A stretch of DNA of 64,000 nt from a virus. Position numbers and translations under genes: made by a program. Of the stretch, positions 9,940 through 51,630 are shown piece by piece. The notes under the pieces were generated by a model. That model was not told the origin of the DNA. It saw only the letters and a program-made list of their open reading frames with translations, and made no database searches. The DNA is taken from IMG/VR virus record IMGVR_UViG_3300042878_001497, positions 109,416 to 173,415 of that record; one strand, 5' to 3'. Numbering within the stretch: the stretch's first letter is position 1; each line of letters begins with the position of its first letter.

Positions 9940-10047
9940 TATGTCCGGGGAAATTTTCCGGAAAAATTTTTATATATGTAGTTGTCTATATAATTATATC
10001 TTTATATATTTAATAATATAGGAGGAATCCTATTTATATAAAAAACT

Positions 10048-10431
10048 ATGAAGCTTATCTCTGCTCTTCTTTCGGAATCTAAAAGCGGTATCTTTGACGG
10101 TAAAACTTACCTTGATGATGCTACTTCGGCTATGGAGTTTGAGAAAGGGTACGAGGCCTTAGCTAGATTTGTTCATCCTAGACTAGTTATCAAAAAAGGC
10201 CACGATCCCGATCTAAAAATGGATTTAACCATAGCTTATGAAGAGCCTTCGGATTTACACTTTAGGTATATCGAGACTACGGGAGAATTTTTCTACGATG
10301 AAAAAATCTTCAAAGCAATCCTTCAGACCCCGGCCGTAAGAGAGAAACTAGGTAAGCTTTGGAATATCTCCCCGGACCCGGTAGAGGTATTTCGCCGCTA
10401 CGGTGCTGTTACAACTAAACTATCAGCGTGA
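10048..10431 (+). CDS. putative head-packaged (internal) protein
   Basis: N-terminus MKLISALLSE; late motif TATTTATA at 10031. Confidence 0.55.
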   Translation: MKLISALLSESKSGIFDGKTYLDDATSAMEFEKGYEALARFVHPRLVIKKGHDPDLKMDLTIAYEEPSDLHFRYIETTGEFFYDEKIFKAILQTPAVREKLGKLWNISPDPVEVFRRYGAVTTKLSA

Positions 10432-27952: not shown

Positions 27953-28405
27953 ATGACTGAACCTACCTGGACTTATAAGGGTAGGGGTATCACTGAGATT
28001 TCTGACATGCCGGAAGGCACTTACGGATTTATCTATCAGATTACTCACACCCCTACCAACAAAAAATACCTCGGCAAAAAAGTCGTATACTTTACCCGCA
28101 AGGTAAAACTTACTAAAAAAGAGATTGCCGAACAGACTGGTCCTGGCCGCAAGCCAACTACCAAGCTCGTTACCAAAGAAAGTGATTGGGATAGTTACTA
28201 TGGATCAAATAAAGAGTTTCTAACCCTAACTAGAACCTACCCTAAAGAAGAATTCCAGAAAGAAATCCTAGAGTTTGTATCTTCCAAAAAGATGCTTACT
28301 TACTTTGAGTGTAAATATTTATTTAAATACGATGCTATTGAGAATAATCCTTTATACTACAATGATAACATCCTAGGTAAATTCTACAGGAAAGATTTTC
28401 TATGA
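27953..28405 (+). CDS. GIY-YIG (Seg-like) endonuclease
   Basis: YGFIYQIT...KKYLGKK...ESDWDSYYGS...FQKEILE...YYNDNI. Confidence 0.8.
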   Translation: MTEPTWTYKGRGITEISDMPEGTYGFIYQITHTPTNKKYLGKKVVYFTRKVKLTKKEIAEQTGPGRKPTTKLVTKESDWDSYYGSNKEFLTLTRTYPKEEFQKEILEFVSSKKMLTYFECKYLFKYDAIENNPLYYNDNILGKFYRKDFL

Positions 28406-28941
28406 AACTAATACAAGCCCTTCTTACTGAGAGCACTTACTCTAAAATCAAAGATGCTTTTAAGAAAGCCGGAGTTACCTATGTAGGGGGAGGATCTCAT
28501 GGGGTTGTTTATAATGCACCCAATCCTGTGCCGGAATTCGGATACGAACCTAAAGAAGGCTACCTAGTAAAAATTACTCAGGATGACATCGAAATGCAGG
28601 CTATGCTCAAGGCTCAAGGTAAGAGCTTTAAATACCTGGCAAACGTTGGCAAGGCAGTGGAGATGGAAAAAGGAGGCTGGTACCAGGTTGAGAACTTAGA
28701 ACCACTACCGCAAGAATACTCTCAGGAAATTAAAAAGAACGTTCGTATATTAGATGAGTTCTTTATGGAAGGAGATAAGAGCATACTTTCAAATCTATCC
28801 CCGTACCTACAGAAGGTCTTTATCGGTGCAAGACAGGAAATGATTCAAGCCGGAGTCGACCCTGAAGATGTTGATATGTACGGAGATGATAACAACGTAA
28901 TGGCAACCGCCGACGGTCAGATAAAATTAATCGACTATTAA
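28402..28941 (+). CDS. minimal protein-kinase-like fold enzyme, putative head cargo
   Basis: VGGGSHGVVY Gly loop, LVKIT Lys, E helix, DMYGDDNNVM catalytic loop, KLIDY; N-terminus MKLIQALLTE. Confidence 0.75.
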   Translation: MKLIQALLTESTYSKIKDAFKKAGVTYVGGGSHGVVYNAPNPVPEFGYEPKEGYLVKITQDDIEMQAMLKAQGKSFKYLANVGKAVEMEKGGWYQVENLEPLPQEYSQEIKKNVRILDEFFMEGDKSILSNLSPYLQKVFIGARQEMIQAGVDPEDVDMYGDDNNVMATADGQIKLIDY

Positions 28942-29922: not shown

Positions 29923-30701
29923 TTTATCCAGGTTCCAATTTTCTTTTAGAGCATAAGCAAAAACGCATTAAGTTCGACGGAGAGCTAAAGCAGATCACTT
30001 TACCGGACCGCCGGGTTTATAAAAGAAGCGAAGGCCTTTATTACCCCTCCGTTACTACGATCCTGCAGTACATGCCTAAGAATAAGTTCTTTGAGCAGTG
30101 GATTAAGGACGTAGGTCATAACGCCGATCTCATTATGAGAAGGGCAGGTGAAGAGGGGACGGCAGTCCACAACGCAGCCGAAGAGCTGATCAAAGGCGGG
30201 GAAGTCCAATGGATGGATGACTACGGCAAGGCTAAGTACTCGCTGCTGGTATGGCAGATGATCAATAAGTTCGTTGAAGCTTGGAAGGCTATGGCTCCTG
30301 AAGTCATCGCTACAGAAGAGTTTACCTTCTCGGACGTCCATAAGTACGCCGGTACTGCTGACATCATCGCTAAGATCGGTGATGAGGTTTGGCTGTTAGA
30401 TATCAAGACCTCTAACTCTTTGCATAAGTCTCACGAGTTACAGCTGTCGGCCTATGCCAAGGCCTGGGAGGAGATGTACGGTCAGAAAATCGACCGGACA
30501 GGTATCATCTGGCTAAAATCAACCAAGAGAACTACCTCTAGCAAAGACGGAGCATTCCAAGGTAAGGGCTGGGAGCTTAAAGTAGTTGATAACATCGATG
30601 AAAACTTCGAACTGTTTCAACTCATTTACAAATTATACCTTTTAGAGCATCCTGCTGACGAACCATCCTTTCAGACATATCCTCTATCGGTAAAGTTGTA
30701 A
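29919..30701 (+). CDS. PD-(D/E)xK (Cas4/RecB-like) exonuclease
   Basis: YPSVTTIL, GTAVH, YAGTADII, LLDIKTS, QLSAYA. Confidence 0.88.
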   Translation: MIYPGSNFLLEHKQKRIKFDGELKQITLPDRRVYKRSEGLYYPSVTTILQYMPKNKFFEQWIKDVGHNADLIMRRAGEEGTAVHNAAEELIKGGEVQWMDDYGKAKYSLLVWQMINKFVEAWKAMAPEVIATEEFTFSDVHKYAGTADIIAKIGDEVWLLDIKTSNSLHKSHELQLSAYAKAWEEMYGQKIDRTGIIWLKSTKRTTSSKDGAFQGKGWELKVVDNIDENFELFQLIYKLYLLEHPADEPSFQTYPLSVKL

Positions 30702-30726
30702 GCTATTTATAAAGAGCCTATCTTTA
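30695..30726 (+). promoter_or_regulatory. nested early + late promoter
   Basis: GTTG(30695)-N20-TATCTTTA(30719) with CTATTTATA (30703-30711) inside the spacer. Confidence 0.7.
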
Positions 30727-30745
30727 GGGTGATAAATAGCACAAA

Positions 30746-31657
30746 ATGGGAGGAAACGTATTCGGAACCACAGACAAGATTAAGAGGGAGGACATCAAGC
30801 CTACCCTCTTAAACTTTTTAAAAGAATTCAAGAGATTATTTCCTCAAGCAGAACCTCACTTCCGTCAAATGCAGACCCTAGGATCTGTAGGTAAGAAGGA
30901 GGTTTCTGGAGATATCGATTTAGCGATTTCCGATAAAAGCTTTGATAAGATTCAGGACTGGGGTCTAGATCAGCAGCACGTCCAGGAGCTTTTCGAACTC
31001 TTCAAAAAGAGATCAAGAACAGCCTCGGAAGAGCAGCTTATGAAAAGAGCTGTGATTGTTGCTATTGCTGAAAAGATCCAAGATGCTGATACCGACCTTG
31101 CTGTCGACGTAAAAGGTTCAGCTTCGGGTGCATTATTCCTGCAAGCTCCTCAATACAACGAAGCAGGAGAGCAGCTAGATAGCAACGTTCAAATCGATAT
31201 AAATGTCGGGGATGTTGACTGGCTTAAATTTGCTTACTACTCTAGCGTTTATTCTGGAAATGTGAAAGGATTGCACCGTACCCAGTTACTGGTTGCCCTA
31301 TTTGCAAATAAAGGATATATCTTCTCTCACAACTACGGAGTTAAGAATAGAGACACCCAGGAAATAGAAGCTAAATCTCCAACTGAAGCTATCGAGCTTT
31401 TAAACAAGCTCTACAAAGCAGACTTTACTTCCGAGATTCTAGAGAACTACTTCAGTGTTATGGAGGCTCTCAAAAACAATCTAAGTGAGCAGGATCTAAA
31501 TAAGGTCTACGATATCTACCTCAAGATTCTTGACAGCACTAGAGCCGACATTCCGGAAGATTTACAGGACTACTGGATTGCAAATCAGGAGAGACTGCAG
31601 CTCAAAGGTAAGTTCCTTCCAGACGATTCTAATTTAGTAAAATATAAAGTACAATGA
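30746..31657 (+). CDS. Pol-beta-superfamily nucleotidyltransferase
   Basis: LGSVGKKEVSGDIDLAI (GS...DxD) and a third Asp in VQIDI. Confidence 0.8.
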   Translation: MGGNVFGTTDKIKREDIKPTLLNFLKEFKRLFPQAEPHFRQMQTLGSVGKKEVSGDIDLAISDKSFDKIQDWGLDQQHVQELFELFKKRSRTASEEQLMKRAVIVAIAEKIQDADTDLAVDVKGSASGALFLQAPQYNEAGEQLDSNVQIDINVGDVDWLKFAYYSSVYSGNVKGLHRTQLLVALFANKGYIFSHNYGVKNRDTQEIEAKSPTEAIELLNKLYKADFTSEILENYFSVMEALKNNLSEQDLNKVYDIYLKILDSTRADIPEDLQDYWIANQERLQLKGKFLPDDSNLVKYKVQ

Positions 31658-34509
31658 GCGGTGTAGCCGGAGGAAATAGAATTAAAAAGCAAGACGTCCA
31701 AGATACGTTTAATGATTTTGAGAATAAAGTTCTCAAGAAAATCCCTGGTTACAAAGCTGCAAGTCTATCTGGAAGCGTTAAAGCTGGCACTAAAGCCGAC
31801 TTCGGAGACTTAGACGTTATTAGTACCTTTGAATACGGTGATAAGAAGCTTGCCAAGCAAGCAATCATCGACACGGTATCTAAGATGCCAGACTCTCTAA
31901 TTATGCCCTTCCAAAGCGATCGGTATAAAGGTAAGAAATTTTATAACTCCGGAGAGATTATCTCGGTACTCTACCCAATCAAAGGAGCACCGGGCGAAAC
32001 TATTCAAGTTGATGTTATGGTTTCTCTTTCTGAAACCGAACACCAGTTTAAGAACTCGTTTTTAGACCTACCTGCCGAAGTGCAGGGTCTAATCTTAGGA
32101 CTAGTTAAGACTGCATTAGTAGAGCAGAAGCCGGCCGAAGTATTCGCCCGTATGGGAATTAAAAATCTACCCCCCTTAGAAGCAAATCAGGAATACGAAT
32201 TTAACCTTTCTAGCGTAAATCTAACTCTCAGAAAAGTAACCCTAGACAACTTTAAAGAAGTAGCTAGAGAGGAAATCTGGAAATCAAATAACTGGTCTGA
32301 CGTACAGAACCTATTAAAGGATTTTGATCTTAATCAGCCCTTTGAAAAGCTTTTAGACCAGATAACAAGATCGCTTACCAATCCTAGAAGTAAGAACCGC
32401 GTAGCAGGAATCTTCCGCTCGATGGTATCGGTTAAATCCGGTGAAGTAGGTACTCCTAAAGGAGATAATAAAGAGAAGGCTTTGTCACAAGTTGCTCAAA
32501 CTCTAACAGAAGGAGAAGAAAGCACCATCGGACTTTACGGAGGTGGATTCAAACCCCCTCACCGCGGTCACTTCCACATCGCTAAAGAGCTAGCCAAGGA
32601 CGTAGATTCAATTAAGATCTACATCGGTGGTACAATCAGAAAAGGAGAAATAATTACAGCTCAGCAGTCAAAAGATATCTGGGGGATCTATGCCAAGTAT
32701 TTAGGTGTGCCCACTGAAATTGAAATAGCACCGGTCACCCCTATCCTTTCAATCTACCAGGAAATCGAAGCTAACAAAAAACAAGACTACTTAGTAGGTT
32801 CCTCTACTGACCCGGCAGATCTAGCTAAGTTTAAAGCTCTACAGCTCAATAAGGATAATCTCTACGATAGAGCAAAATTAAAAATTGTGTCAACGATCAA
32901 CGAAGAAAAGCTATCTGCTACTACAATTAGAACAGATATGGACTACCTAAAAGCAGGTCAATGGATGCCTGAAGAACTTTCAGCAGACGATAAAAAAACA
33001 GTACTAGGAATCCTAAAAGCAACCCCAGAGTACAAAATGGCAGAAGCCATCGACGATGTATTCAACAGCTTCCTAGGAGAAGGTACAAAAGAAAAAGCAG
33101 AAAAGAAAGAAGAAGAAACTTCTGAAGTAACCATGGGAACTCCCATGGCACCGATTGCCGTAGTACCTTCTGAGATTCGTCAGAAAATGCAAAACCTTAC
33201 CGCATACTTCCAGAAGCTTGCCCCGGACGATGTGATCGTAGACTTTAACGGTCAATCGATCGTTATTACCCCGATGTACTACAACAAAGCTCTACCGATG
33301 GGACCAGCTGACTACACTCCCGAGCAGAAACCTATCGACGAATACCAGGATACTGCAGCAGCTATCAACTACGTACCTTATATCGCTGGTATTCTAGAGC
33401 ATATGATTAAGAAGGGTATGACGGTATTACCGCTGCCGGAGATCAAAACTAGAGAAGATGAAGAAAACGCTGCTAACGTTTTTGGTAGGACTGCTTACTA
33501 CGATCCTACTAAGAAAGAAGTCGTGCTGTATGTAACAGGACGTCACCCTAAAGATGTACTGCGTTCATTCTGCCATGAGATGATTCATCACATGCAGAAC
33601 CTAGAAGATCGTCTACCAGCTTTTACTACTACCAACACCCAGGAAGATTCTACATTAAATGATATTGAAAAGGAAGCTCATTTCCTTGGTAGCATGCTCA
33701 TGAGAGAGTACGAAGATTCGATTAAGAAGGAAGATAGCCTGGAAGAAGGTACCAAATACCGTTCAATCGTTGCTGACGTTAGAAGAGCTGTTAACGATGC
33801 TCTTAATGTCTTAATTAGTGGTAAAAAGCTAAAAGGATATAACGTTAAGACCAAAAGAGAGCCTACTAAAAAGGATTTAGAGTTTGCTGAAAAATACGGA
33901 ATGTCTCCTTTAGGAGCTATGCTTTACAACGAATATCAATCAGCATACCTGGGAGAGTTTACAAGCAAAAGCGAGAAAGGAACTAAGACAGAAGACGGCA
34001 AGCCGGTAAATGTAGGGGTAAGTTTAAAATTTGCTCAAACCGACCAAGTAGCACCGGGCAAATTCCACATCGACGGTGAAGCCGGTTCCGATGAAGGAGA
34101 AATCGATATCATACTAGCTTTTAATCCGGCTGACGGGACTAATATGCTTCAACAAATCCAACCAATCTTAACCGATCTTATTCGTCACGAAACCGAACAC
34201 CTAACCCAATCCGGGGTAGAAGTTCGCCCGGATAAGTGGATGAGAAAGGACGAAGCTAGAAGAAGAGCTATTCGTCAGAACCCGGAGATATGGTACAAGT
34301 ATTACATGCTTCCTAAAGAAGTAGATGCTAACATCCAGGGCTTGCATACAAAGTCAAAGTACGAGAAGAAAGACTTCCAGTCAACCGTTGACCAGTACCT
34401 AGAAGACCTAGTACAGGGTGAAATTATAACAGTTGCAAATAAGCAAAAAATTTACGATCTTTGGAAGAGCAGAATTCCCCAAATCGGAGGTATTCCAAAC
34501 TTAAAATAA
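31654..34509 (+). CDS. multidomain protein: Pol-beta NTase + HxGH (cytidylyltransferase/NMNAT-like) + two HExxH zincin-like domains
   Basis: SGSVKAGTKADFGDLDVI and IQVDV; GLYGGGFKPPHRGH and LSATTIR; CHEMIHHMQ..EKEA; RHETEHLTQ..YY..PKEVDA. Confidence 0.8.
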   Translation: MSGVAGGNRIKKQDVQDTFNDFENKVLKKIPGYKAASLSGSVKAGTKADFGDLDVISTFEYGDKKLAKQAIIDTVSKMPDSLIMPFQSDRYKGKKFYNSGEIISVLYPIKGAPGETIQVDVMVSLSETEHQFKNSFLDLPAEVQGLILGLVKTALVEQKPAEVFARMGIKNLPPLEANQEYEFNLSSVNLTLRKVTLDNFKEVAREEIWKSNNWSDVQNLLKDFDLNQPFEKLLDQITRSLTNPRSKNRVAGIFRSMVSVKSGEVGTPKGDNKEKALSQVAQTLTEGEESTIGLYGGGFKPPHRGHFHIAKELAKDVDSIKIYIGGTIRKGEIITAQQSKDIWGIYAKYLGVPTEIEIAPVTPILSIYQEIEANKKQDYLVGSSTDPADLAKFKALQLNKDNLYDRAKLKIVSTINEEKLSATTIRTDMDYLKAGQWMPEELSADDKKTVLGILKATPEYKMAEAIDDVFNSFLGEGTKEKAEKKEEETSEVTMGTPMAPIAVVPSEIRQKMQNLTAYFQKLAPDDVIVDFNGQSIVITPMYYNKALPMGPADYTPEQKPIDEYQDTAAAINYVPYIAGILEHMIKKGMTVLPLPEIKTREDEENAANVFGRTAYYDPTKKEVVLYVTGRHPKDVLRSFCHEMIHHMQNLEDRLPAFTTTNTQEDSTLNDIEKEAHFLGSMLMREYEDSIKKEDSLEEGTKYRSIVADVRRAVNDALNVLISGKKLKGYNVKTKREPTKKDLEFAEKYGMSPLGAMLYNEYQSAYLGEFTSKSEKGTKTEDGKPVNVGVSLKFAQTDQVAPGKFHIDGEAGSDEGEIDIILAFNPADGTNMLQQIQPILTDLIRHETEHLTQSGVEVRPDKWMRKDEARRRAIRQNPEIWYKYYMLPKEVDANIQGLHTKSKYEKKDFQSTVDQYLEDLVQGEIITVANKQKIYDLWKSRIPQIGGIPNLK

Positions 34510-34510
34510 A

Positions 34511-35071
34511 ATGGGCAAGTTAGCTGACTTACTACTTACTGAAGAGGAGCAAAATCCAAAACCAAAAGGCAAACTATTCTGTGATATGGATGGCGTGCTT
34601 ACGGATTTTGTAGGCCGCTTTGACCATTACTTCGGTATGCATCCAAACGAGTACAAGGAGAAAAAAGGTGACGGAGGCTTCTGGAGCGTCATTGCACCTA
34701 TCGGTCAGATCTTTTGGGAAGGAATGGAATGGACCCCGCACGGCCTACAGCTATGGGAACACATTAGAGATTTTAACCCAACTCTCTTAACTGCCCCCTC
34801 TGAAGAACAGTCTTCAAGAGACGGTAAGGTAGAATGGGCAAATAGGGAATTAGAACCTATTCCTCCGATCATCTTCCGTCCGGCTAAAGAAAAGCATCTA
34901 GAGTGTACAGGACCCGATGATATCCTAATCGACGATAGGGAAGATACCATTCAGAGATGGATAGATGCAGGAGGTGTAGGAATCTACCATCCAGAAAACG
35001 GAGACCCATCCAACGTTATTATAAGATTAGAAAAGTTAGGTTATGTCAAGCCATCTGAAGAAAGAATTTGA
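34511..35071 (+). CDS. HAD-family 5'(3')-deoxyribonucleotidase-like
   Basis: LFCDMDGVLTDF, LLTAP, GKVEW, ILIDDR...W...GGVGI; N-terminus MGKLADLLLTE. Confidence 0.88.
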   Translation: MGKLADLLLTEEEQNPKPKGKLFCDMDGVLTDFVGRFDHYFGMHPNEYKEKKGDGGFWSVIAPIGQIFWEGMEWTPHGLQLWEHIRDFNPTLLTAPSEEQSSRDGKVEWANRELEPIPPIIFRPAKEKHLECTGPDDILIDDREDTIQRWIDAGGVGIYHPENGDPSNVIIRLEKLGYVKPSEERI

Positions 35072-35615: not shown

Positions 35616-35635
35616 CTATTTATAAAGAAACTCCA

Positions 35636-36565
35636 ATGCTTTTAACTGAGTCAAAAGTTACTGCGGTATTAACAGAAGGTCTTCGCTACCATTTGCAGAC
35701 CGGTACTCCCTTATACGAGAACATCTACCGTCCAGGATCAGAACAATACTTTACTACCATCCGTCAGGCACGTCTTCTTATGAATGAAGGTCTACTACGG
35801 TGCCTCTGCCTAGAAGATATGGAACTTCTATTTGAAACCGAGGTAGGAGAGTACGCAGAGTTTGAAGGCAAGCAAGTACCTTTAGATTTCCCAATGATTG
35901 GAGAAATTAGCTTTATAATTCCGGATGCAGAAGCAACCTGGCAGCAAGCCTCTACCAATCCTCAGATCCAGAAGATGGGTGAGGAGCAGTGGAAGAAGCT
36001 TTCCGACATCTCAAAAGCAGCCGGAGGATTTGGATATACAGCCAAATACACAGACATCGATCCAGTGATGGCTGATCTATCAGGAGAAGAAACAGTTACT
36101 TTTTCAGACGACGATCAAATCCAGATGCCAGTAGTGCTTAAGTACCAGGAAGCCGGTCAAGTAAAATACGAAATCGTAGTAGGAGAAGATATCCTACATA
36201 GCCTCATTTCTTCAGGCAAGGATACAGACCCGGACATCTGGGTAGTTGATATCACAAGCGAGGCTCTAGCAGAGGCTAAGTACCGTGGATCAGAAGTAGC
36301 TCTAAACAAACCCAAAAGAGGAGGACCTAAGAAATTCTACGTTTATACTCGTAACCCTAAGACAGGAAAGATCATCAAAGTCAACTTCGGAGGTACTACA
36401 GGACTGACTGCCAAGATCAACAATCCTGAAGCACGCCGGAACTTCGCCAGCCGTCATAACTGCGCTACTAAAAACGACAAAACCAAGCCCGGGTACTGGT
36501 CTTGCAGACTACCAAGGTACGCCAAGCTTATCGGACTCAAATCAAGCTTTGGAGGATTCTGGTGA
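35636..36565 (+). CDS. modular late protein with basic C-terminal Cys/His domain (DUF6321-like)
   Basis: MLLTE...; after ALAE comes KPKRGGPKKFYVY...NPEARRNFASRHNC...PGYWSC. Confidence 0.6.
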   Translation: MLLTESKVTAVLTEGLRYHLQTGTPLYENIYRPGSEQYFTTIRQARLLMNEGLLRCLCLEDMELLFETEVGEYAEFEGKQVPLDFPMIGEISFIIPDAEATWQQASTNPQIQKMGEEQWKKLSDISKAAGGFGYTAKYTDIDPVMADLSGEETVTFSDDDQIQMPVVLKYQEAGQVKYEIVVGEDILHSLISSGKDTDPDIWVVDITSEALAEAKYRGSEVALNKPKRGGPKKFYVYTRNPKTGKIIKVNFGGTTGLTAKINNPEARRNFASRHNCATKNDKTKPGYWSCRLPRYAKLIGLKSSFGGFW

Positions 36566-37143: not shown

Positions 37144-37286
37144 TGGCTAAGATCAAGTCTCAAGCGGTCTCAACATTCCAGGACAGGCCGAAGGTCAGCA
37201 GACCGGGGGTACATTCTAAGACTAAGACTTCAGTTCTAAAAACTAGCAAGAACTACACCAAGAAGTACCGTGGCCAAGGTAAGTAA
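37143..37286 (+). CDS. 47-aa basic peptide ending KKYRGQGK (not in ORF track)
   Basis: TAATG overlap; MAKIKSQAVSTFQDRPKVSRPGVHSKTKTSVLKTSKNYTKKYRGQGK. Confidence 0.7.
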   Translation: MAKIKSQAVSTFQDRPKVSRPGVHSKTKTSVLKTSKNYTKKYRGQGK

Positions 37287-37293
37287 ATCTGCT

Positions 37294-37467
37294 ATGCACG
37301 CTTTTATGCGAGAGCTACTCCTAGAGGTAATCAAGGAGAAGCCCGGACTATGGGCTAATATCCGTGCACAAAAAGCTAGAGGAGAGAAACCTTCTCACCC
37401 AAACAGTAAAGCTTTCAAAGATGCTGTTAAGGCTGGAAGAGAGATTCTTAAAAAAGAAAAGAAATGA
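37294..37467 (+). CDS. small basic protein, putative head cargo
   Basis: MHAFMRELLLEVIKE then KPGLWANIRAQK; start revised to 37294. Confidence 0.6.
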   Translation: MHAFMRELLLEVIKEKPGLWANIRAQKARGEKPSHPNSKAFKDAVKAGREILKKEKK

Positions 37468-47278: not shown

Positions 47279-47857
47279 ATGGCAAATCTCTTAATTGAAT
47301 ATACCCCCTTCCGTCCTACGATCACCGAGTCCGTCAAAAGACCCGGTATCTTTGAGGTGACAGGTGTTATGCAGAGAGCCGGAAAGAAGAACCAAAACGG
47401 AAGAATCTACGAAAGAGCTATCCTCGATAGAGAGGTTAAGAAGTACATGGAAGCTTTCGTTAAAGTAGGTAACGCATACGGTGAACTAGATCACCCAGAA
47501 TCTCCAATTGTATCACTAAAGAATGCTTCACACGTTGTGAAGGATTTATGGTGGGATGGAGATGATCTAATGGGTAAGGTTGAGCTACTCAACACCCCGG
47601 CCGGTAACATCGTAAAAGAAATCATCAAAGGCGGACACACAATCGGTATCTCTTCTAGAGGTACAGGTTCAGTCCAGCCAATTGGTGAGAACACCCTAAT
47701 GGTTAAAGACGATTTTGAATTGGTGTGCTGGGATTTCGTATCGAATCCTTCTACACACGGAGCATTTCTAAACCCCGTCTCTTTAAATGAAACAAAGCAA
47801 GTTGTAGACCGCTACAGCAAGCTTCATAACATTATCGGAGACATTTTAAGAGCATAA
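47279..47857 (+). CDS. gp21: prohead protease (T4 gp21-like)
   Basis: NQNGRIY, GELDHP, ASH, TPAG, GISSRGTGS, DFVSNPST. Confidence 0.96.
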   Translation: MANLLIEYTPFRPTITESVKRPGIFEVTGVMQRAGKKNQNGRIYERAILDREVKKYMEAFVKVGNAYGELDHPESPIVSLKNASHVVKDLWWDGDDLMGKVELLNTPAGNIVKEIIKGGHTIGISSRGTGSVQPIGENTLMVKDDFELVCWDFVSNPSTHGAFLNPVSLNETKQVVDRYSKLHNIIGDILRA

Positions 47858-50052: not shown

Positions 50053-51630
50053 ATGGAATTAAATTCTCTTTTAAACGAATCAGCACAGGGCTTCAAGTCT
50101 CTGCAAGCTGATGCTGCTAGACTCGCTGACAAGTGGTCTGCAACTGGTCTTCTTGAGGGTCTTGGCAACGAGATCGACAAGAACAATATGTCTATGATCC
50201 TTGAGAACCAGGCAAAACAAATCATCAAGGAATCCAACGCTACCAATGCTAACGGCGGAGCCGAGCAGTGGGCTGGTGTTGCTCTACCGCTTGTAAGAAA
50301 GGTATTCGCTCAGATCGCTGCTAAAGATTTCGTATCTGTACAGCCTATGAACCTTCCTTCAGGTCTTGTATTCTATCTTGACTTCAAGTACGGTACTACT
50401 GCTAACGGAAGAACTGACGGTGACAATATGTACGGTAACGTATCTACTGCTAACAACAAGATGTCTGTAGACGAGGAAGTTTCTGGCGGCCTTTACGGTG
50501 CTGGTCAATTCGGCTACACTATCAACTCAGCTTCTTTAGCTATCACTCAATCTACTGGTGCTGCTACTTCAGCTTCTATCGGATACCGTGACGAACTAGC
50601 TGGAACTTTATTCAAGACTGTATCAGTTTCTGCTGCTAGCTTCACAGCCCCAGATCTTAAGGGTGTAAGAGCTTTCCGTCTTCGTTCTGGTTCAACTGAC
50701 GTAACTAACTACCCAGAATTCACTACTTACGACGGTACTAACATTATCTTCGTAGTTAAAGCTAGCGACCTTTCTGTAACTGGAGAAATCACTGGATCAG
50801 TAATGTACCACAAGCAGCCTACTGACACTACTAGAGGTGACTTCGAATTCACTGGTGGTGTTGACGACAGAAGCCCAGCTATCCCTGAGATCAACGTATC
50901 TCTTGCTTCTGAGGCTATCGTTGCTAAGACTAGAAAGCTTAAAGCTCAATGGTCTCCAGAATTCGCTCAAGACTTGAACGCTTACCACAGCATCGATGCT
51001 GAGGCCGAGCTTACCTCACTTCTATCAGAGTACATCTCTATGGAAATCGATCTTGAGCTTCTTGACATGCTTATCCAAGACGCAGTTACTACTGAGCGTT
51101 GGTCAGCTGAGAACAACAAAGTGTGGAATGCCACTACTGGCTTGTGGTCTACTGCTACTGCAGACTTCTACAACACTCAAGGTCAGTGGTTCCAAACTCT
51201 TGGTACTAAGGTCCAGAAGGTGTCTAACAAGATCCACCAGAAGACTCTACGTGGCGGTGCAAACTTCCTAGTAGTTTCTCCGACTGTTGCAACTATCCTC
51301 GAGTCAATCCCAGGATATGCTGCTGATACAAACGGAGACAAGATGGACTTCGCAATGGGCGTACAGAAGGTAGGTCAGCTTAACAGCCGCTTCCGCGTAT
51401 ACAAGAACCCATACATGACTGAGAACGTAATCCTTATGGGCTACAGAGGTTCACAGTTCCTAGAGACTGGTGCGGTTTACGCTCCTTACATCCCTCTAAT
51501 GATGACTCCATTAGTGTACGATCCTGCTAACTTCACTCCAACGAAGGGCATCATGACTCGTTACGCTAAGAAGATGATCCGTCCAGAATTCTACGGTAAG
51601 ATCTACGTTTCTGACGTAGCTACTATCTAA
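50053..51630 (+). CDS. gp23: major capsid protein (T4 gp23-like)
   Basis: LPLVRK, VSVQPMNLPSGLVFYL, AKTRKLKAQWSPEFAQDL, YAPYIPL, FTPTKGIMTRY. Confidence 0.97.
   Translation: MELNSLLNESAQGFKSLQADAARLADKWSATGLLEGLGNEIDKNNMSMILENQAKQIIKESNATNANGGAEQWAGVALPLVRKVFAQIAAKDFVSVQPMNLPSGLVFYLDFKYGTTANGRTDGDNMYGNVSTANNKMSVDEEVSGGLYGAGQFGYTINSASLAITQSTGAATSASIGYRDELAGTLFKTVSVSAASFTAPDLKGVRAFRLRSGSTDVTNYPEFTTYDGTNIIFVVKASDLSVTGEITGSVMYHKQPTDTTRGDFEFTGGVDDRSPAIPEINVSLASEAIVAKTRKLKAQWSPEFAQDLNAYHSIDAEAELTSLLSEYISMEIDLELLDMLIQDAVTTERWSAENNKVWNATTGLWSTATADFYNTQGQWFQTLGTKVQKVSNKIHQKTLRGGANFLVVSPTVATILESIPGYAADTNGDKMDFAMGVQKVGQLNSRFRVYKNPYMTENVILMGYRGSQFLETGAVYAPYIPLMMTPLVYDPANFTPTKGIMTRYAKKMIRPEFYGKIYVSDVATI

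Follow-up and report, generated by a model that had tools for sequence, protein, structure and literature searches.

A shuffling polyprotein of T4-type aquatic phages with family-X-polymerase-like and NMNAT-like modules, a putative injected cargo with L-x-E motifs at its module junctions

A stretch of 64,000 nucleotides of DNA of a lake phage (here called the window) from IMG/VR record IMGVR_UViG_3300042878_001497, a 102-kb fragment that is 63% complete, encodes a tightly coupled unit of three genes behind a late-type promoter motif. The unit consists of a stand-alone nucleotidyltransferase (NT1), a polyprotein of 951 amino acids (aa) and a nucleotidase of the HAD superfamily. The polyprotein joins a second nucleotidyltransferase (NT2), an adenylyltransferase of the HIGH superfamily that resembles nicotinamide mononucleotide (NMN) adenylyltransferases (NMNATs), a small module (D3a) and two HExxH metallopeptidase-like modules (Zn1 and Zn2). 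On the basis of sequence comparisons and structure models, we propose that this string of enzymes is probably cut apart, packed into the virion and injected. The locus would then be a cargo similar to polyvalent proteins and T4 internal proteins, expressed late, cut by the prohead protease and injected; we give this reading a probability of about one half. We would rather place the unit in a large branch, not described so far, of polyvalent or internal-protein-like cargo systems in T4-type aquatic phages.

According to the proposed mechanism, the polyprotein would consist of independent modules (PolX-like, NMNAT-like, the small module and two HExxH modules) on disordered linkers, which carry [L/I/V/M]-x-E followed by G, A or S. 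During head assembly, a gp21-type (S77) prohead protease would cut after the glutamate of each junction, and the same protease would cut after the L-x-E of 10-11-residue leaders on separately encoded modules, for example the HAD protein. Single enzymes would be freed inside the capsid, ejected with the DNA and would act at the very start of the next infection. The PolX-like modules are predicted to add nucleotides, either template-guided or terminally, at 3' ends of DNA or RNA. The HIGH module is predicted to transfer adenylyl groups, with conversion of NMN to NAD+ as its closest model, the HExxH modules to proteolyse host factors and the HAD protein to dephosphorylate (deoxy)nucleoside monophosphates.

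Shuffled modules, their junctions and the prohead protease

A profile search among 1.84 billion representatives yielded 3862 clusters (50% identity) at E<=1e-3, and five domain hidden Markov models were mapped on the 150 best representatives, to which the family counts below refer unless stated otherwise. These proteins share a near-constant core, HIGH-(variable 80-600 aa)-Zn1-(variable)-Zn2-(variable C-terminus), arranged in dozens of architectures. The N-terminal PolX-like module is present or absent and sometimes C-terminal, and the order of the two Zn modules is sometimes swapped. In close relatives of the window polyprotein, insertions fall exactly on residues 476-488 and 693-696. Eight representatives contain a fused NT1, which stands directly before an NT2-type module in P0303, P0316, P0387 and P0310 and before HIGH in P0371 and P0291. 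The HAD protein is fused in 22 of the 150, at the C-terminus in 21 and at the N-terminus in one (P0363). Further modules of unknown family appear in relatives. Because modules shuffle and the PolX-like one is absent or replaced, only HIGH-Zn1-Zn2 being near constant, the unit does not fit one fixed metabolic pathway, and the original prediction of a dedicated nucleotide-chemistry pathway holds only in part.

The window polyprotein contains ten [LI]xE sites. Four of them fall in its four linkers of low predicted local distance difference test score (pLDDT), namely TLTE286/G, FLGE476/G, PIDE563/Y and SLEE698/G (the slash marks the putative cut), with E286, E476 and E698 ending at nucleotides 32511, 33081 and 33747; L284, E286, E491 and E563 are invariant in the family alignment. 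Across the family, [LIVM]xE[GAS] occurs 16.9 times per 1000 aa within 12 residues of domain-envelope edges versus 2.1 times elsewhere, an 8-fold enrichment counted over representatives that are not phylogenetically independent, with the motif recurring at different kinds of junction. No enrichment is seen when D, Q or K takes the place of glutamate at P1 (ratios 0.95, 0.22 and 0.62). An aspartate at P1 prevents processing by gp21 in T4. Inserted modules are flanked by LGE/, VAE/, VKE/ and LRE/, and most HAD fusions stand directly after ...SLP[LIV]xE/. All fused PolX modules (10/10) begin immediately after [LIM]xE, at the very residue that follows the initiator methionine in unfused genes: INE/GGNVF corresponds to M/GGNVF and LNE/SGSAGG to M/SGVAGG. 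Split forms of about 670 aa begin at residue 292, past the invariant L284 and E286 of the NT2 end. Some fusions without any zincin, fused NT1-NT2 proteins among them, keep the junctions too (P0303, P0316, P0369), and P0303 lies beside terminase, portal and S77 genes in the related phage L004. The notion of a polyprotein with L-x-E sites at its domain boundaries, put forward in the original prediction, holds, and comparison across the family supports it strongly through this edge enrichment, the shuffling of modules and the exact starts of fused modules; in the window, the junctions also lie in low-pLDDT linkers.

T4 gp21 cuts after the glutamate of L/I-x-E (PMC9026906). The window encodes a prohead serine protease of this type (Peptidase_S77, 47279..47857, + strand; Pfam PF03420, 6e-31), together with a gp20-type portal (PF07230) and a gp23-type capsid protein, which complete a T4-type head module; terminase and baseplate genes are present as well. 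The S77 protease is also encoded by L004, by the Flavobacterium phages vB_FspM_immuto (160 kb; hereafter immuto), which are the sole cultured relatives, and by 18 of 19 related viral records of at least 50 kb, all 19 of them fairly close relatives; among records at least 90% complete the count is 6/6. In T4, unrelated internal proteins are loaded by means of a capsid-targeting sequence, the N-terminal 10 residues, in which positions 8 and 10 determine processing, and the Alt protein is trimmed by gp21 at both ends (PMC9026906). T4 internal proteins are described as very diverse and related to defence, with the targeting sequence as their only common element (PMC3012670). Separately encoded proteins of the window bear leaders such as MKLIQALLTE, MKLISALLSE and MKLIDLLLEE (L8, E10), and the leader of the HAD protein, MGKLADLLLTE, is conserved in immuto. 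Within the family, 47 of 71 HIGH-first polyproteins contain [LIVMF]xE in their first 25 residues, about 42 of these as a leader of 12-20 residues that ends in L-x-E before the first strand. The prohead protease is favoured over the built-in HExxH modules as the processing enzyme because the motif matches, S77 co-occurs and zincin-free fusions keep their junctions.

Several further observations concern leaders and inserts. Unrelated open reading frames (ORFs) with a 9-11-residue leader MKLIxxLL[ST]E begin at window positions 10048, 28402, 34511, 35636, 37464, 37672 and 55706; L or I at position 8 and E at position 10 of this leader correspond to the geometry of the T4 capsid-targeting sequence. 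The leader-bearing ORF at 28402-28941 codes for 179 aa and contains a glycine-rich loop, VGGGSHGVVY; its product matches no Pfam family and is possibly a minimal protein kinase. The S77 protease starts with MANLLIEYTPFRPTITES, where LIE and ITE sites near the start resemble the LIE-9 site of T4 gp21. In the capsid protein (50053-51630), LNE/S, LLE/G, ILE/N and IKE/S precede the start of the Gp23 domain at residue 71, and IKE60/S is the likely maturation site.

Two separate genes downstream of the unit are related to modules that other members of the family carry inside the polyprotein. The first (35636..36565, + strand) has an MLLTE leader and its own TATTTATA motif at 35617, and its residues 88-226 match inserts of other polyproteins (P0034, P0323 and P0338 in BLASTP, E 8e-10 to 3e-8). 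The second, a 65-aa gene (37270..37467, + strand), is homologous by BLASTP and alignment to a mini-module between Zn1 and Zn2 of relatives (P0107, P0257, P0053 and P0357, E 1e-13 to 3e-8). In the related phage L003, the NT1 slot is held by a Zeta_toxin-family gene (PF06414, L003:9181-10008) that overlaps the start of the polyprotein, and the L003 polyprotein itself gives a weak ART-PolyVal match. A module inserted in P0004 (residues 476-594), P0034 (484-602) and P0321 has an HFKERVxERGL motif and weak matches to RegB_T4/DUF4258 (E 0.006-0.1); it lies between LGE/ and VAE/ sites and may be an RNase of the BECR fold.

Predicted folds of the modules

AlphaFold models were obtained for NT1 alone (mean pLDDT 87) and for the 951-aa polyprotein (mean pLDDT 79, structured domains mostly 70-95), and were compared with solved structures by Foldseek against PDB and by the Foldseek-independent VIA; for the polyprotein model, the matches were taken up by its PolX and HIGH domains. 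NT1 (30746..31657, + strand, 303 aa) has a palm and a thumb like family-X polymerases. Its best VIA matches are Pol X of African swine fever virus (ASFV; Z 9.2, 164/176 residues aligned), Pol beta (Z 9.1), terminal deoxynucleotidyltransferase (TdT; Z 9.0) and Tth PolX (Z 9.0), followed by terminal uridylyltransferases as the next class (Z 6.6 over about 105 residues); Foldseek finds Pol beta/mu at E ~2e-4. NT2, the first module of the polyprotein (residues 1-286, 31654..32511, + strand, ending TLTE/G), has only Pol lambda, Pol beta and Tth PolX at the top in Foldseek (E ~1e-6, about 220 columns). In VIA, its residues 6-234 match Pol beta (Z 11.9), TdT (Z 11.8), Pol lambda (Z 11.3) and ASFV Pol X (Z 10.9, 163/176 aligned). 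PolX structures stand 2-3 Z units above the next class, with 163-179 residues aligned versus about 105. Invariant in the family alignment are G46-S47, D56, D58 and D151 of NT1 and G40-S41, D52, D54 and D120 of NT2. Both enzymes share with Pol beta the GS...GDxD motif and a third aspartate, numbered G179-S180...D190, D192 and D256 in Pol beta, and both are confined to palm and thumb like ASFV Pol X, the 8-kDa and fingers DNA-binding domains being absent from both models. Unlike the known minimal family-X polymerases, to which their identity is 10-17%, they possess an extra C-terminal helical region of about 60-100 residues and occur in the window as two paralogous tandem copies.

Sequence searches were less informative. 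Pfam DNA_pol_B_palm matches 7 of 44 relatives (best 3.9e-6) and NTP_transf_2 matches 4 of 44; neither of the two matches the nucleotidyltransferase (NTase) sequences of the window, Pfam and PHROGs gave nothing usable for NT1 and the whole polyprotein, and NT1 matched no PDB sequence profile. NT1 and NT2 are regarded as kin because their folds agree; their sequence similarity is weak (E 0.15 in BLAST and 0.02 in hhalign, over the GS..DxD region). Judged by the models, NT1 and NT2 are minimal palm-plus-thumb PolX-like enzymes rather than generic Pol-beta-fold NTases. The two adjacent NTase domains that were seen originally are borne out and can be sharpened to this class, and the CD-NTase, CCA-adding and MNT classes then named for comparison score far lower than PolX. 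CD-NTase, CCA-adding, MNT and OAS-type identities were all rejected on fold scores (NT1 Z 4.3-5.3 versus 9).

The second module (residues 287-476, 32512..33081, + strand, ending FLGE/G) is an NMNAT/PPAT-like adenylyltransferase of the HIGH superfamily, where PPAT stands for phosphopantetheine adenylyltransferase. With residues 289-461, VIA finds PPAT 4nah and the NadM NMNAT 2qjt at the same Z of 12.5, the M. jannaschii NMNAT at Z 12.0 (22% identity) and NadR at Z 11.0. The isolated domain reaches 22.7 bits with Pfam CTP_transf_like (cut-off 21), and its matches in the PDB profile search are weak and all NMNATs. H303, H306 and S421-A-T423..R426 are invariant in the family alignment. The HIGH-family domain of the original prediction is confirmed by this model, by its invariant motifs and by the above-threshold Pfam match. 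For the suggested restoration of NAD+ there is no additional support, and NadV and NadE were not found in the 102-kb, 63%-complete record. With the NMNATs of the superfamily (archaeal NMNAT, NadM, NadR) the module shares the GxFxPxHxGH and SxTxIR motifs and the Rossmann-like fold (Z 11-12.5), and its immuto homologue is annotated NMNAT/NadR. Unlike them, it has no Nudix or kinase partner domain, it sits inside a shuffling polyprotein in a record without NadV, and its fold scores are just as high with PPAT and cytidylyltransferases. Phages are known to salvage NAD+, with NadM/NadR among their enzymes (PMC9503650). BFVD contains 'cytidyltransferase-like domain' proteins of 600-1000 aa with a HIGH fold from T4-like cyanophages and many uncultured phages, such as M4PQB5 of Synechococcus phage S-RIM2 (1021 aa). 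These large cyanophage proteins were considered as relatives and rejected: they share only the HIGH fold, and tblastn does not find them.

The HIGH module is followed by an acidic/lysine spacer (residues 477-491, with the invariant E491) and by the alpha/beta module D3a (residues 492-563, ending PIDE with the invariant E563), which together occupy 33082..33342 on the + strand. In the 951-aa model, pLDDT is below 50 at residues 473-502 and 542-569, and residues 692-700 are also disordered. The region of the spacer and D3a is the site of 110-250-aa insertions in relatives, and D3a is present in only part of the family.

Zn1 (residues 564-698, 33343..33747, + strand, ending SLEE/G) is a minimal HExxH metallopeptidase-like domain according to its motifs, predicted topology and BFVD matches. 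Its HEMIHH motif starts at H641 (nucleotide 33574), and H641-E642..H645 and E672/E674 are invariant. The predicted topology is a helix, three strands, the HExxH helix and then a helix with E672/E674. In BFVD, small proteins of viruses that are named 'IrrE N-terminal-like' match (122 aa, TMt 0.73, E 7e-5), as does a protein of 121 aa (TMt 0.88, 35% identity); the length of these matches, 120 columns, suggests that they belong to Zn1. Pfam DUF6782, a putative metallopeptidase, matches weakly at the HExxH (E 0.04 here, 3e-7 in one relative), and the Atlas neighbours of Zn1 are partly Peptidase_M78, a weak signal. By these matches Zn1 appears IrrE/M78-like, and its predicted topology is that of a minimal gluzincin. 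Zn2 (residues 699-951, 33748..34506, + strand) contains the second HExxH motif, RHETEH, and is zincin-like by motif and topology only. Its HETEH starts at H845 (nucleotide 34186); R844-H845-E846-x-E848-H849 and K888-E889-x-D891 are invariant, and in the predicted fold a beta-sheet precedes the HExxH helix. Atlas offers only leads for Zn2 (LPD23, SprT-like and Zn_peptidase_2, score 0.88). Zn1-Zn2 gave no solved-structure match with PDB sequence profiles, and Pfam MPTase-PolyVal did not match the HExxH modules of the window.

The HAD protein (34511..35071, + strand, 186 aa) is predicted to be a 5'(3')-deoxyribonucleotidase of the NT5C type. It matches phrog_2643 (5'-3' deoxyribonucleotidase, 2e-23) and carries a DMDGV motif and the leader MGKLADLLLTE (34511-34543). 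Pfam NT5C stays below the cut-off (14.7 versus 24.8 bits) in the window protein and exceeds it in relative P0286, and PDB sequence profiles gave no match for the HAD protein. Both the two HExxH domains, with their invariant catalytic-motif residues, and the HAD nucleotidase with its cargo leader had been recognized correctly from the sequence, and the ORFs and every named motif (HEMIHH, HETEH, TLTE, FLGE, PIDE, SLEE) lie where they were first reported.

Layout of the locus and its promoter motif

All genes of the window are on the + strand. The polyprotein ORF (31654-34509) begins with an ATG that overlaps the NT1 stop codon (ATGA), and the HAD gene begins 2 nt past the polyprotein stop. The genes of immuto follow the same order, with primase, PD-(D/E)XK exonuclease, a hypothetical protein of 302 aa, a protein of 907 aa that is annotated 'NMNAT, NadR', and 5'-nucleotidase. 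The order SegE-primase-PD-(D/E)XK exonuclease-NT1-polyprotein-HAD is kept in immuto and in the related phages L002 and L005, in agreement with the expectation that the genes are conserved together. The locus lies downstream of SegE, primase and exonuclease in L002, L003 and L005, and just upstream of terminase, portal and S77 in L004. The SegE-type GIY-YIG homing endonuclease (PF19835, 1e-25) of the window, at 27953-28405, stands just upstream of the primase, and occupies the same place in L002, L003 and L005.

A late-type promoter-like motif, TATTTATA, is located at 30704..30711 (+ strand), 42 nt upstream of the NT1 start codon. It occurs 16 times in the window, always on the + strand and 0 times on the other strand, compared with 5.8 copies expected for both strands. 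Fourteen of the 16 copies lie 17-78 nt upstream of start codons, including those of the portal, the head-tail adaptor and virion proteins, and most are 17-42 nt upstream of the starts of structural and leader-bearing genes; no copy precedes the primase or the exonuclease. The extended form (C)TATTTATA(aag) is found at 10031, 13824, 25348, 30704, 35617, 38300, 43417, 45323, 51687, 54549, 58015, 60057 and at 4 more positions. We call the motif late-type by association with the genes that it precedes, which suggests late timing. TATTTATA is the reverse complement of the T4 late promoter box TATAAATA, yet here it lies on the coding strand. Sigma-70-type promoter hits in the window are no more frequent than by chance (10 versus 12.1 expected), and the Bacteroidota-type TAnnTTTG box is neither present upstream of NT1 nor enriched in the window. 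Of the two promoters, early and late, that had been assigned to the operon, the late one finds a counterpart in this over-represented and oriented motif, and the early one does not.

Competing explanations and comparison with known systems

Several points weigh against processing by the prohead protease and injection. Cleavage and packaging are deduced from sequence, as are the late timing of expression, the choice of protease, injection and all enzymatic activities; what the analysis shows are the folds and motifs, the shuffling of modules, the junction motif with its position and the co-occurrence with the S77 protease. The window polyprotein (MSGVAGGN...) and NT1 (MGGNVF...) have no N-terminal leader, which leaves their entry into the prohead unexplained. 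Beyond L-x-E, the internal junctions resemble leaders only weakly (median score with a position-specific matrix of leaders -14.7 versus -16.4, p=0.003); a leader-like targeting helix at every internal junction had marginal support and this claim was dropped. Inside modules, [LI]xE is not significantly depleted in this genome, where NT1 alone contains six of these sites; across the family the depletion is significant (88 observed versus 212 expected) but inflated by shared ancestry. Further points are that the 19 records examined for S77 are fairly close kin, that the built-in HExxH modules, two in number, offer an alternative processing enzyme and that the locus lies beside primase and exonuclease genes, which would fit a role in replication or repair too.

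That the same polyvalent polyprotein is cut by its own HExxH modules, through MPTase-type autoproteolysis before packaging or after injection and independently of the prohead protease, seems rather unlikely to us. Such processing would agree with the published polyvalent proteins, in which zincin-like peptidases form the hub and are predicted to free the other domains (PMC5512222), with Zn1 and Zn2 being, together with HIGH, the most constant modules of the family, with the invariance of the HExxH and the downstream glutamate of both, and with the missing leader of the polyprotein. However, the junctions show precisely the motif for which gp21-type S77 proteases are specific (PMC9026906), such a protease is encoded by 18 of the 19 records, separately encoded single modules bear the same L-x-E leaders, the junctions persist in the zincin-free P0303, P0316 and P0369, and no zincin with glutamate specificity at P1 is found among fold or sequence neighbours.

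Conserved synteny with primase, exonuclease and nucleotidase could also mean that the polyprotein is an uncleaved multifunctional cytoplasmic enzyme of DNA repair or of NAD/nucleotide metabolism that acts together with these neighbours, and in which L-x-E is only a feature of the linkers, inherited with the modules; this roughly corresponds to the immuto annotation 'NMNAT, NadR'. PolX-like folds suggest gap filling, the HIGH fold is NMNAT-like, multidomain enzymes with flexible linkers are common, and [LI]xE is not depleted inside modules here. We nevertheless consider such an enzyme quite doubtful. Modules are freely gained, lost and reordered, the PolX-like one is replaced by unrelated modules in the same slot, the junctions are enriched specifically in glutamate at P1 with L or I at P3 and not in the Asp, Gln and Lys controls, the exact N-termini are common to fused and unfused modules, NT1 is preceded by the late-type motif of virion genes, and NadV and NadE were not found in the 63%-complete record. 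Improbable is a dedicated counter-defence module, in which three transferases and a phosphatase would serve one pathway, be it restoration of NAD+ or nucleotides, repair of tRNA/RNA ends, or synthesis or quenching of signalling nucleotides. The closeness of HIGH to NMNATs and the existence of phage NAD+ salvage (PMC9503650) speak for it, and cooperation of NT1 and NT2 is suggested by their fused forms, which are always adjacent and in the same order. On the other hand, the NTases are PolX-like and not of the CD-NTase, CCA-adding or MNT type, the set of modules varies across relatives, the search of the 63%-complete record brought up no enzyme that produces NMN, and the nucleotidase would oppose rather than feed NAD+ synthesis.

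Our preferred reading, cargo released by the prohead protease, can be extended tentatively beyond this phage. T4-type phages of aquatic Bacteroidota may load their capsids with a 'cargo train', a hypervariable polyprotein whose modules, among them two paired minimal family-X polymerases and an adenylyltransferase similar to NMNATs, would be separated at L/I-x-E junctions by the prohead protease and enter the host along with the genome. This would represent a previously undescribed way of building and diversifying injected enzyme cargo and the first PolX-type enzymes delivered pre-made by a virion, which could for example mend or extend the ends of incoming DNA. If true, PolX-like nucleotidyltransferases and an NMNAT-like adenylyltransferase would be enzyme types not previously listed as phage virion cargo, the modules of a shuffling effector polyprotein could be released by a head-maturation protease, and a simple sequence rule, [L/I]-x-E followed by G or S at module edges, would find injected cargo in thousands of uncultured aquatic phages. 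The annotation 'NMNAT, NadR' in immuto covers one of about five modules. Direct testing is possible, as immuto and its Flavobacterium host are cultured.

The architecture was originally not recognized as a characterized system. It does have precedents, since it agrees with the class of polyvalent proteins of phages (PMC5512222) and with the paradigm of T4 internal proteins and Alt (PMC9026906). Polyvalent proteins of phages and conjugative elements, described by Iyer, Burroughs, Anand, de Souza and Aravind in 2017 (PMC5512222), are large phage proteins that join many unrelated enzymatic modules, as does the window polyprotein with four or five independent modules in its model. They also have recurrent zincin-like HExxH hub modules, sometimes two per protein, and extreme domain shuffling, and proteolytic release and delivery with DNA have been predicted for them; relatives of the window polyprotein weakly match ART-PolyVal and RegB/DUF4258-like (BECR-type) inserts. 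Unlike in polyvalent proteins, the HExxH modules of the window match no Pfam MPTase-PolyVal, no MuF or other known head-anchoring domain is seen, and the junctions bear the cleavage motif of another enzyme, the S77 prohead protease. The domains described there include neither PolX-like NTases nor an NMNAT-like HIGH module, the Pol-beta NTase of polyvalent proteins being a minimal MNT-like form restricted to conjugative elements (PMC5512222). Many head ejection proteins of phages phiKZ, 201phi2-1 and SPN3US are cut after glutamate, often at several sites, by a diverged gp21 homologue and are then ejected (PMC9026906, PMC7411985). They belong to another phage lineage and have another motif context, and there is no evidence of a shuffling enzyme polyprotein of the window composition in these phages.

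T4 IPI-III and Alt (PMC9026906, PMC3012670) present the second parallel. The window has the T4-type head module of gp20, gp21 and gp23, unrelated proteins that start with leaders of ten residues (L/I in position 8, E in position 10), a cargo repertoire that is hypervariable and the same cleavage motif, L/I-x-E followed by a small residue; Alt is itself an injected enzyme that gp21 cuts at both ends. T4 cargo is encoded by separate small genes, whereas that of the window is concatenated into a polyprotein with internal sites, and the window polyprotein and NT1 have no leader. The window cargo is PolX-, NMNAT- and peptidase-like and includes a nucleotidase, in contrast to small basic proteins or an ADP-ribosyltransferase in T4. 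If our proposal is true, it joins two systems that have so far been treated separately: the T4 internal proteins, which rely on a tag and on cleavage by gp21, and the polyvalent proteins, whose processing has been assigned to built-in zincins.

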